Shown: one piece after another, positions 37,305-58,959 of the stretch
Layout: every line of letters starts with the position of its first letter
Numbering within the stretch: the stretch's first letter is position 1
Source of the DNA: Escherichia coli
GTDB taxonomy: Bacteria > Pseudomonadota > Gammaproteobacteria > Enterobacterales > Enterobacteriaceae
Direction: 5' to 3' (one strand)
Assembly (NCBI RefSeq): GCF_003018255.1
Contig: NZ_CP027440.1
DNA length: 64,000 bases
Notes under the pieces: generated by a model
Told to the model about the DNA's origin: nothing
The model's database searches: none
Seen by the model: the letters and a program-made list of their open reading frames with translations, nothing else
Translations under genes and position numbers: made by a program

Positions 37305-38138
37305 TCAACGCATATTCAGTTTATTGGCGTGGTACGCAATATGCTCGCCAATAAAACTGGAGACAAAATAATAGCTGTGATCATAACCCTCGTGATAACG
37401 GATTAACGTTTTGATATTCATCTCCTGGCAGATCTTTTCAAGATTTGGAGTCCGCAGCTGTTCTGCGTAAAAATCATCACTCAACCCCTGATCAACCATT
37501 ATTTCCGCAACGCGTTGACCTTGTGAAATAAGACTCACCGGATCGTAATCCAACCAGGCATCTTTATTTTCACCAAGATATGCGGTAAAGGCTTGCTGTC
37601 CCCACGGTACTTGCGATGGGGAGACAATGGGCGCAAACGCCGAGACGCTGACATATTCATCTGGGTTACGTAACGCCAGCACCAGCGCGCCCAGCCCGCC
37701 CATAGAATGACCTGAGATAGACTTTCTGGTCGTTGCCGGAAAATGTTGCATCACTAAATCCGGCAGCTCGTTGCGGATATAGTCATACATTTTGTAATGT
37801 TCATTCCACGGCGCTTGCGTTGCGTTCAGGTAAAACCCGGCACCTTGCCCGAGATCGTAACGGTCGGCATCTGCGACATGACTGCCTCGCGGACTGGTGT
37901 CTGGCGCAACAACAATAATGTTGTGCTCAGCCGCGTAACGCTGCATCCCCGATTTAGTAATGAAATTCTGCTCGTTGCAGGTCAGGCCTGAAAGCCAGTA
38001 CAACACCGGCAATTTTTCATTTGCGGCTTTTGGCGGGAGATAGACGCCGACATTCATTTCACATTTCAGTGATGGGGAATAATGCCGATACACATTTTGC
38101 CAGCCGCCAAAGCTGGCATGTTTTTCAATGAGTTCCAT
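37305..38138 (-). CDS. frmB: S-formylglutathione hydrolase
   Basis: 277 aa esterase with GHSMGG serine motif. Confidence 0.95.
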   Translation of the reverse strand: MELIEKHASFGGWQNVYRHYSPSLKCEMNVGVYLPPKAANEKLPVLYWLSGLTCNEQNFITKSGMQRYAAEHNIIVVAPDTSPRGSHVADADRYDLGQGAGFYLNATQAPWNEHYKMYDYIRNELPDLVMQHFPATTRKSISGHSMGGLGALVLALRNPDEYVSVSAFAPIVSPSQVPWGQQAFTAYLGENKDAWLDYDPVSLISQGQRVAEIMVDQGLSDDFYAEQLRTPNLEKICQEMNIKTLIRYHEGYDHSYYFVSSFIGEHIAYHANKLNMR

Positions 38139-38229: not shown

Positions 38230-39369
<1,140 letters not shown>

Positions 39370-39373
39370 TCAG

Positions 39374-39649
39374 CTATTTAAGATAGGCACGAACCAGTTC
39401 AATAGTGTCGTCAACGGATTGGCTGACTTCGCGGCTGTAGCAGTCATTTCGGTCAAACGTTTCCCGGATATGGCTTTCAAGCACTTCTGCCATCAGTCCG
39501 TTAGCCGCGCCCCGAACGGCAGCGATCTGTTGGAGTATGGCACGGCATTCGGCATCACCCTCCAGCGACCGTTCCAGAGCATCAATCTGCCCCCGAATAC
39601 GACGAACTCGAGTAAGGACCTTTTTCTTCTCTTCCGGAGTACTGGGCAT
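39374..39649 (-). CDS. frmR: formaldehyde-responsive repressor (RcnR/CsoR family)
   Basis: 91 aa from ATG at 39647-39649 ([10 protein letters not shown]); track ORF begins at GTG 39668-39670. Confidence 0.9.
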
Positions 39650-39673
39650 TTCGCACCTCATCATCTGCACGCA

Positions 39674-39726
39674 ATATACTATAGGGGGGTATGTTATATG
39701 TCAATGCATACCCCCCTATAGTATAT
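39674..39726. promoter_or_regulatory. candidate FrmR operator: perfect 19-bp inverted repeat ATATACTATAGGGGGGTAT / ATACCCCCCTATAGTATAT separated by 15 bp
   Basis: Seen in sequence immediately upstream of frmR; G6/C6 tracts flanked by AT-rich arms resemble RcnR/FrmR-family operators. Confidence 0.6.
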
Positions 39727-39833
39727 AACACTGGAGAATAAAATTTATCCGGTGAATGTAGTCGGATAACAAAAAGTAAAGAGGGGCCTAATCGACAGGG
39801 AAGGCCGCCCCGGATAGCGGGCGGCAGAAGGAA

Positions 39834-40607
39834 TCAGAATTTCCAGGTCAGATGGGCTGCAAGTTGCAGACCGTTATAATCATCGGTTGGGGTGTCGTAC
39901 CACACTTTACCTGCCGTCAGCCCGAGATTAAGTTGCTCAGTCAGCGGTTGAATACGTTGCAAACTGACGCTCTTCATGCTGCCGTAGCGTGTTTCTGGCG
40001 TCCAGTCATAGGTGTAAGCACCTGTTCCGCGGCTTAGCCATAGTTGCGTATAACCAGTGCCGCGCGGGTCATTCAGACGCACGGAAATCATATTGCTGTA
40101 ACTACCACCTGCATCGCTGGAGTCATAATGGGTATAGCGATAGCTGGTGATCACCGGGCCTGTATAGAGGGATACGCCGCCTTGCCAGGCATCGACTTCG
40201 ACATCATCGTAATATTTAGTGTAGCGATAACCGGTCGTGAAAAGCGTTTTTGGCAACAGGGCCAGGTTAATATCCTGACGAAAATCCTGGCGGGCAAAGA
40301 CCGGCGTATTATCCGCAAAGGCAATACCCGTTCGGGTTGTCAGCCAGTTATTCCATTTATACCAGACCGCACCCTGACCGCGAGTGGCATTGAAATGTTC
40401 AGTTTCATAATCACGACGCCCCTGGGAAAGATTAAAAAGCAGCGTTGCGTTTTCAACTTTCGCCACCAGTTCAGCATACGCTAAATTACGGTTGCCATGA
40501 TCGCCAGAATAATCGGTAAAATCGTAGCCCGCGGTAATGGAAGTTAACCCGGCATAAGCGGGCAATGTGCTAAATATTGCCGCCGCTAATAACGTCCGTT
40601 TTATCAT
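39834..40607 (-). CDS. yaiO: outer-membrane beta-barrel protein
   Basis: 257 aa, signal peptide MIKRTLLAAAIFSTLPAYA, C-terminal ...HLTWKF; last gene of the yaiS-P-X-O operon. Confidence 0.88.
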   Translation of the reverse strand: MIKRTLLAAAIFSTLPAYAGLTSITAGYDFTDYSGDHGNRNLAYAELVAKVENATLLFNLSQGRRDYETEHFNATRGQGAVWYKWNNWLTTRTGIAFADNTPVFARQDFRQDINLALLPKTLFTTGYRYTKYYDDVEVDAWQGGVSLYTGPVITSYRYTHYDSSDAGGSYSNMISVRLNDPRGTGYTQLWLSRGTGAYTYDWTPETRYGSMKSVSLQRIQPLTEQLNLGLTAGKVWYDTPTDDYNGLQLAAHLTWKF

Positions 40608-58236: not shown

Positions 58237-58698
58237 CTTAAAAACCTATCCCGTCTAACACAAAGTGCATACATTACCACGACAAAACGGGGGATTCGCG
58301 GCCTTCTGACAGAATGTTGCAATCTTCTGCTGACAAAGCGTGCAACGTACTGGTGAAGAAAGTGCGTTATCTCAATGATGTGCGCAAGATCACAAAAATG
58401 ATGAACGGGAAGCTAATTTATTCCTGGCTTGTATGGCCATGCAGTGAGTTTTTTTCTCTTAATTATAAGTTAACGAAGAGAATATATTTCATAACTTTTA
58501 TTTATAATAAAGGTTGATAATTAAAAGCCTATATTTTGTGTGGGTAATTATTAAAATAAGAGAAACGTTTCGCTGGTAATCAAACAAAAAATATTTGCGC
58601 AAAGTATTTCCCTTGTCATAAAAATAATACTTCCAGACACTATGAAGTTGTGAAACATAATGTTAACTTCTCCATACTTTGGATAAGGAAATACAGAC

Positions 58699-58959
58699 AT
58701 GAAAAATCTCATTGCTGAGTTGTTATTTAAGCTTGCCCAAAAAGAAGAAGAGTCGAAAGAACTGTGCGCGCAGGTAGAAGCTTTGGAGATTATCGTCACT
58801 GCAATGCTTCGCAATATGGCGCAAAATGACCAACAGAGGTTGATTGATCAGGTAGAGGGGGCGCTGTACGAGGTAAAGCCCGATGCCAGCATTCCTGACG
58901 ACGATACGGAGCTGCTGCGCAATTATGTAAAGAAGTTATTGAAGCATCCTCGTCAGTAA
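58699..58959 (+). CDS. iraP: anti-adaptor protein for RpoS degradation
   Basis: 86 aa ([22 protein letters not shown]...). Confidence 0.9.

Follow-up and report, generated by a model that had tools for sequence, protein, structure and literature searches.

The 64-kb window (the whole stretch of Escherichia coli DNA that was analysed) holds a long and perfect palindrome in front of the frmRAB operon. The question raised by this locus is whether the palindrome serves as the operator of the repressor FrmR, as had been proposed in a sequence-only reading, or whether it is better explained as a nucleic-acid structure, as the target of another regulator or as the ends of a mobile element. With a probability of about 0.93, the 53-bp palindrome is the E. 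coli frmRAB operator, composed of two mirror-image type I sites of the CsoR/RcnR family through which FrmR represses the promoter.

The repeat, its promoter and the two sites

A repeat finder and a script both returned a perfect inverted repeat at 39674-39726, with 20-nt arms that are 100% complementary and a 13-nt spacer; according to the script, complementarity stops at the outer ends and the repeat does not extend outward. Read on the plus strand it is ATATACTATAGGGGGGTATG-TTATATGTCAATG-CATACCCCCCTATAGTATAT, and along the direction of transcription (minus strand) the region reads tgtt-ATATACTATAGGGGGGTATG-cattgacatataa-CATACCCCCCTATAGTATAT-tgcgtgcagatgatgaggtgcgaaATG. The sequence-only reading had placed the repeat at exactly these coordinates, directly upstream of frmR, with perfectly complementary arms and G6/C6 cores, and all of this was borne out; it had also called an inverted repeat with 19-bp arms and a 15-bp gap, of which the inverted repeat stands while the lengths were one base off at each inner end. 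Its remark that the length and perfection are striking was justified as well, the 39674-39726 repeat being the longest perfect inverted repeat in the window for loops of up to 40 nt, with a runner-up of 13-nt arms, and the longest arm in 200 first-order Markov simulations of the window ranging from 9 to 14 nt. The repeat is real and far beyond chance. The features of the locus are as follows.

37305-38138, minus strand: frmB, S-formylglutathione hydrolase (TIGR02821, 399 bits)
38230-39339, minus strand: frmA, S-(hydroxymethyl)glutathione dehydrogenase (TIGR02818, 743 bits)
39374-39649, minus strand: frmR, 91 aa, repressor of the DUF156/CsoR-RcnR family, autoregulated from the promoter of the repeat (NCBIfam FrmR equivalog, Pfam PF02583)
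39654-39659, minus strand: Shine-Dalgarno-like GAGGTG, read from the sequence; its GAGG core stops 6 nt short of the frmR ATG
39669-39671, minus strand: predicted transcription start, placed 5-7 nt downstream of the -10 hexamer
39674-39726, no strand assigned: whole inverted repeat, very probably the FrmR operator region of the frmRAB promoter (repeat finder; PMC5146963 Fig. 6a)
39674-39693, plus-strand reading: left arm, ATATACTATAGGGGGGTATG
39676-39681, minus strand: -10 hexamer TAGTAT, inside the proximal arm, at 17-nt spacing from the -35 hexamer (consensus prediction)
39676-39692, minus strand: predicted proximal FrmR site (type I), ATACC-CCCCTAT-AGTAT (pattern match, 1 mismatch)
39684-39689: G6 tract in the inverted repeat
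39699-39704, minus strand: -35 hexamer TTGACA, a perfect consensus match, within the spacer between the arms (consensus prediction)
39707-39726, plus-strand reading: right arm, CATACCCCCCTATAGTATAT
39708-39724, minus strand: predicted distal FrmR site (type I), ATACT-ATAGGGG-GGTAT (pattern match, 1 mismatch)
39711-39716: C6 tract in the inverted repeat
39834-40607, minus strand: yaiO (TIGR04390), upstream of frmR on the same strand

The gene that follows the repeat is frmR itself, which opens the minus-strand operon frmR-frmA-frmB and has its ATG 24 nt from the end of the repeat. The frmR product scored 189 bits against the NCBIfam FrmR equivalog (cutoff 133), also matched Pfam PF02583 and is 100% identical to FrmR of K-12; against the RcnR model it scored 68 bits, under the cutoff of 138.

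Only one sigma-70-like promoter was found in 39500-39950, and it overlaps the repeat, with -35 and -10 hexamers that together match 10 of 12 consensus positions. When the published offset of the repeat centre (-29 from a predicted start, PMC5146963) is applied to the centre at 39700, a start at about 39671 is predicted. Relative to the predicted start, the distal site is centred at about -45 and spans roughly -37 to -54, immediately upstream of the -35 hexamer, and the proximal site is centred at about -13 and spans roughly -5 to -22, covering the -10 hexamer and most of the promoter spacer. The -35 hexamer therefore sits in the gap between the two sites, whose centres are 32 bp, or about three helical turns, apart.

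Each arm is a quasi-palindromic type I site of the form ATAC(T/C)-N7-(A/G)GTAT around its G6/C6 tract. As searched here (ATACT-N7-AGTAT with at most one mismatch), such a pattern is expected by chance 0.62 times in the whole window. Both arms also read ATAC-TATAGGGGG-GTAT with the G6/C6 tract, in agreement with the type I definition of PMC5146963, and the overlap with a promoter that characterises operators of DUF156 repressors was found too, the -35 hexamer lying in the spacer, the -10 hexamer in the proximal arm (both as consensus predictions) and a DUF156 gene downstream. All testable defining features of a CsoR/RcnR type I operator are thus present in the repeat. The 53-bp palindrome is two complete sites and not a single operator, and its large symmetry arises because the two sites mirror each other across the -35 hexamer.

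Two further one-mismatch matches to ATACT-N7-AGTAT, at 58591-58607 and 58627-58643, lie 36 bp apart in AT-rich intergenic DNA before a small ORF (58699-58959). With no G/C tract and AT-rich surroundings, they were rejected as FrmR-type sites and are most likely due to chance.

Variation within Escherichia and across frmR homologues

Conservation was examined at close range in an alignment of 11 Escherichia sequences, seven of them from E. coli and four from other species of the genus. The distal sequence TTATATACTATAGGGGGGTAT was unchanged in all 11, and the proximal sequence ATACCCCCCTATAGTATATTGC was unchanged except for one C-to-T substitution in E. albertii; the remaining differences within the repeat fall on the innermost two positions of the arms and on a single spacer base. 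These differences define three alleles, given here with the number of E. coli genome records that match each exactly.

Majority E. coli allele: arms 21 nt, spacer 11 nt, 3555 records
K-12 (MG1655) allele: arms 19 nt, spacer 15 nt, 1033 records
Window allele, T at 39694: arms 20 nt, spacer 13 nt, about 4 records

The T at 39694 (A on the minus strand) lies just inside the proximal arm, in the spacer between the -35 and -10 hexamers, where nearly all Escherichia have C. Of some 5400 E. coli genomes, only about 4 carry an exact copy of the 91-bp stretch of the window, strain CFSAN018748 being an example. The changes at the inner positions are uncompensated on the opposite arm, which argues against selection for base pairing.

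The region was matched in 5415 of 5426 complete E. coli genomes, and the repeat occurs at a median of one place per genome in about 5400 of them. At a coverage of at least 80%, a 301-bp query was recovered in 4281 of the 5415 genomes versus 5398 for the 91-bp core. Conservation among strains ends about 20 bp upstream of the distal arm, and the yaiO-frmR intergenic DNA at about 39745-39833 is polymorphic (strains CD306, str149 and M15 differ). A G+C-rich hairpin, GCCGCCC-gctatccg-GGGCGGC, is also found in this interval (39804-39825, minus strand), 9 nt past the yaiO stop codon; no T-run follows it and it was not called in the terminator scan. It may mark where the yaiO transcript ends, or be a REP-like element.

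A wider comparison was made with 83 loci encoding FrmR homologues of 44-100% identity to the window protein, drawn from plasmids and from one genome per species and spanning Enterobacterales, Aeromonas, Pasteurellaceae, Neisseriales, Burkholderiales, Xanthomonadales, Rhizobiales and Acetobacteraceae. In 78 of the 83, frmA directly follows the frmR homologue. The site upstream of these orthologous repressor genes is conserved: ATACT-N7-AGTAT, with at most one mismatch, was found within 120 bp upstream of 77 of the 83 frmR homologues versus 6 of 2609 control 120-bp segments taken from the same loci, and three of the six loci without a match have the same flanks around a 6-bp centre.

Three architectures could be distinguished. 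Most alpha- and betaproteobacteria carry a single 17-bp site beside or overlapping a TTGAC -35 element. A second arrangement consists of a single long palindrome, represented by an E. coli plasmid frmR-frmA locus (L002) with TATAGTATA-G6-TATACTATA, and similar single palindromes with a shorter and interrupted C tract are found in Tatumella (L022-L025, L028). The third comprises two sites 32-35 bp apart, with TTGAC between them in every two-site locus, and occurs in Escherichia, Providencia, Edwardsiella, Serratia, Pantoea, Erwinia, Aeromonas and Deefgea. The arms of these two-site loci are usually mirror images, often imperfect ones (13-17 of 17 positions matched). At one of them, in Erwinia endophytica (L019), the sites ATACTGGGATATAGTAT and ATACTGGTGTATAGTAT are direct repeats 33 bp apart, about 70-40 nt upstream of frmR, with 15 of 17 positions matched in direct orientation versus 10 of 17 in inverted orientation. 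This pair offers a natural test case for orientation dependence.

Because the arms are often imperfect and the Erwinia sites are direct repeats, the conserved feature appears to be not a stem but a pair of protein-sized sites around the -35 hexamer. In this survey a gene-proximal ATACT-N7-AGTAT site, with the same geometry as RcnR sites, is common to the frmR operons of alpha-, beta- and gammaproteobacteria. The second, upstream site, hence the large palindrome, is a gain specific to certain lineages, namely Escherichia, some other Enterobacterales, Aeromonas and Deefgea. Whether the two arms evolve in concert was examined in 11 two-site loci. The distal site agreed over its central 7 bp with the reverse complement of its own proximal site at 4.9 of 7 positions on average and with that of other loci at 4.3 of 7. 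Co-evolution of the arms through gene conversion or selection on a stem was not retained, the signal beyond shared ancestry being unconvincing.

Two observations of a different kind came out of the survey. Four loci with near-identical upstream regions (L001, L009, L010 and L014, in records of Citrobacter, Klebsiella and Maribrevibacterium) carry an orphan frmR of about 91% protein identity with no frmA downstream. The L001 copy is plasmid-borne, with an IS66-family transposase gene about 0.8 kb downstream, and in its upstream region (about 1400-1470) the proximal site is intact (ATACTCCGATGCAGTAT), the distal site is built around an 8-bp centre and the G/C tracts are disrupted; this looks like a repressor gene spreading on mobile DNA. 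In Lysobacter and its relatives (L037-L039, L054, L065 and L079), the site ATACTCCCCCCCACTAT abuts the annotated start, its last base being the A of the ATG, which suggests either a leaderless transcript or a mis-set start codon.

Experimental evidence and alternative explanations

The geometry of the repeat relative to the promoter hexamers and the conservation of its sites are direct observations, and experiments published by others have established binding of FrmR to the promoter fragment, its release by formaldehyde, repression in vitro and in vivo, and the sufficiency of two transplanted sites. The same large inverted repeat was described as tandem type I FrmR sites, each a G/C-rich 9-bp core between ATAC and GTAT, by Denby et al. 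2016 (Sci Rep 6:38879, PMC5146963, Fig. 6a), and their figure draws two tetramers on the E. coli repeat, a stoichiometry that was modelled. In that work FrmR of E. coli bound the frm promoter (Pfrm) with a Kd of about 220 nM, the value for an unrelated promoter being about 3600 nM, the complex came apart with formaldehyde, purified FrmR alone repressed Pfrm transcription in vitro with relief by formaldehyde, and a stop codon in frmR rendered a Pfrm reporter constitutive. The binding test with and without formaldehyde that the sequence-only reading had proposed is therefore already published at the level of the promoter fragment (PMC5146963). More recently, two ATAC-N9-GTAT sites placed upstream of the -35 hexamer and in the spacer of the J23100 promoter conferred FrmR-dependent repression that was relieved by inducer (PMC11127321, 2024). 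A truncated native promoter retaining both sites lost repression in the same study, and consequently the DNA flanking the two sites may also matter.

These data are consistent with a simple mechanism. Without formaldehyde, FrmR tetramers very probably occupy both sites, one tetramer per site according to the published model, and deny RNA polymerase access to the -10 hexamer, to the promoter spacer and to the DNA upstream of the -35 hexamer, so that the operon, with frmR itself, is repressed while FrmR is bound. Formaldehyde cross-links Pro2 and Cys35 of FrmR, and the modified repressor comes off the DNA, allowing transcription of frmRAB. We infer the bases contacted, the number of tetramers on the E. 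coli promoter and the transcription start.

The mirror-image arrangement could itself be functional, either through cooperative bridging or wrapping by the tetramers or through the loading of two tetramers per G/C tract as in Salmonella, that is, four per promoter. This idea is rather unlikely; room for it is left by the loss of repression in the truncated two-site promoter (PMC11127321) and by an E. coli stoichiometry that is modelled. If it were true, inverted orientation and a spacing of about three turns would matter for how strongly the promoter is repressed or how sharply it is induced.

The frmRAB promoter is widely used as a formaldehyde biosensor. Rohlhill 2017 reportedly applied Sort-seq mutagenesis to Pfrm, and Woolston 2018 is said to be a biosensor paper with an engineered or mutagenised promoter. 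In a literature search that did not cover these two works, neither a footprint at base resolution nor mutagenesis of half-sites was found for the E. coli operator. The naturally variable bases reported here (the two innermost arm positions and one base between the arms) may be of help to those who engineer Pfrm.

Among the alternatives, a role of the palindrome as a nucleic-acid structure, namely a cruciform formed under negative supercoiling or a 20-bp RNA hairpin blocking read-through from yaiO before frmR, has the fold in its favour: as a single strand the repeat forms a perfect 20-bp stem of -19.1 kcal/mol (z-score -6.6), with none of 200 shuffles as good, and yaiO does lie upstream on the same strand. 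However, a U-run is missing after the stem on either strand (TGCGTGCAG on the minus, AACACTGGAG on the plus) and the terminator scan gave 0 sites, so that an intrinsic (Rho-independent) terminator was rejected. The inner stem positions vary without compensation among E. coli alleles, leaving arms of 19, 20 or 21 nt; in other genera only 10-17 of the 17 arm positions match, the Erwinia sites being direct repeats, and most frmR homologues have a single site, which is unable to form such a hairpin. Since the promoter hexamers put the predicted start downstream of the repeat, the repeat would moreover be absent from the frmR transcript. A structural function is consequently very unlikely. A search of 39300-40000 against Rfam 15 returned only generic microRNA-precursor hairpin models, whose scores of 19-30 bits fall short of the gathering scores (80-139), and these sub-threshold matches were set aside as an artefact of the perfect stem.

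It is highly improbable that the sites are mainly used by another regulator such as the paralogue RcnR. The RcnR site (TACT-G6-N-AGTA) has TACT-N7-AGTA geometry, and this flank geometry is indeed common to both, as seen in the TACT-C7-AGTA of Salmonella rcnRAPro and in the E. coli motif quoted in PMC5146963; the window FrmR also obtains its sub-cutoff score on the RcnR model. The site nevertheless co-occurs with frmR-frmA in 77 of 83 loci across three classes, and both the constitutive promoter activity when frmR carries a stop codon and the in vitro repression by purified FrmR alone (PMC5146963) point to FrmR. As for the terminal inverted repeats of a small mobile element or its remnant, the close-set perfect 20-nt arms resemble a miniature element and the DNA just upstream is polymorphic among strains, yet such an origin is barely conceivable: the repeat is single-copy in the E. 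coli genomes, by which dispersed mobile elements and IS terminal repeats were excluded, no other G/C-tract copy exists in the window, its position relative to frmR is kept in distant bacteria and the promoter hexamers are embedded in it. No further copies at unrelated loci with target-site duplications were found. The reading of the repeat as a FrmR operator overlapping the promoter is, on the other hand, supported by the identity of FrmR, the hexamers within the repeat, the conservation of the sites and the binding, release and repression reported in PMC5146963, as the sequence-only reading had anticipated.

Comparison with known systems

The repeat is the already published FrmR operator of K-12, and its identification is correct but ordinary, being already known. 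The K-12 Pfrm operator (PMC5146963) is the same element at the same locus with an identical FrmR protein, and the window differs from it only in its allele, at the two innermost arm positions (19-nt arms in K-12 versus 20-nt arms in the window). The main use of the finding is therefore that a characterised regulatory element was correctly called from sequence alone, and it opens no new question; the comparative survey adds a modest refinement in the form of a proximal site shared across three proteobacterial classes and a lineage-specific second one.

The operator of frmRA in Salmonella Typhimurium (frmRAPro) is a further close relative and shares CCCCCCTATAGTATAT with the E. coli proximal arm; this sequence is the retained half of the frmRAPro* oligonucleotide, identical to the E. 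coli arm over 16 bp. The Salmonella operator is bound by FrmR, and the binding is weakened by formaldehyde and needs the flank (PMC4528141, PMC5016687), mutation of one AT-rich flank of the site having abolished it (PMC5016687). It holds a single G/C tract with long arms on both sides and takes up two tetramers per 33-bp fragment (Osman et al. 2015/2016, PMC4528141, PMC5016687). In E. coli, by contrast, the -35 hexamer is flanked by two distinct G/C tracts that lie 32 bp from each other, and the Salmonella type of single long palindrome is also present in E. coli at the plasmid locus L002.

RcnR belongs, as FrmR, to the DUF156 family. Between rcnR and rcnA of E. coli and Salmonella, according to the account of Iwig & Chivers 2009 cited in PMC5146963, it has tandem type I operators that read TACT-G6/7-(N)-AGTA, share the TACT-N7-AGTA geometry of the FrmR sites and take one tetramer per site. 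The effector of RcnR is Ni/Co versus formaldehyde for FrmR. In the Salmonella rcnRAPro oligonucleotide, which reads TACT-C7-AGTA, both C tracts are on the same strand and the sites are closer together than the FrmR pair. The FrmR sites, finally, carry extended ATA/TAT flanks, unlike the RcnR sites.
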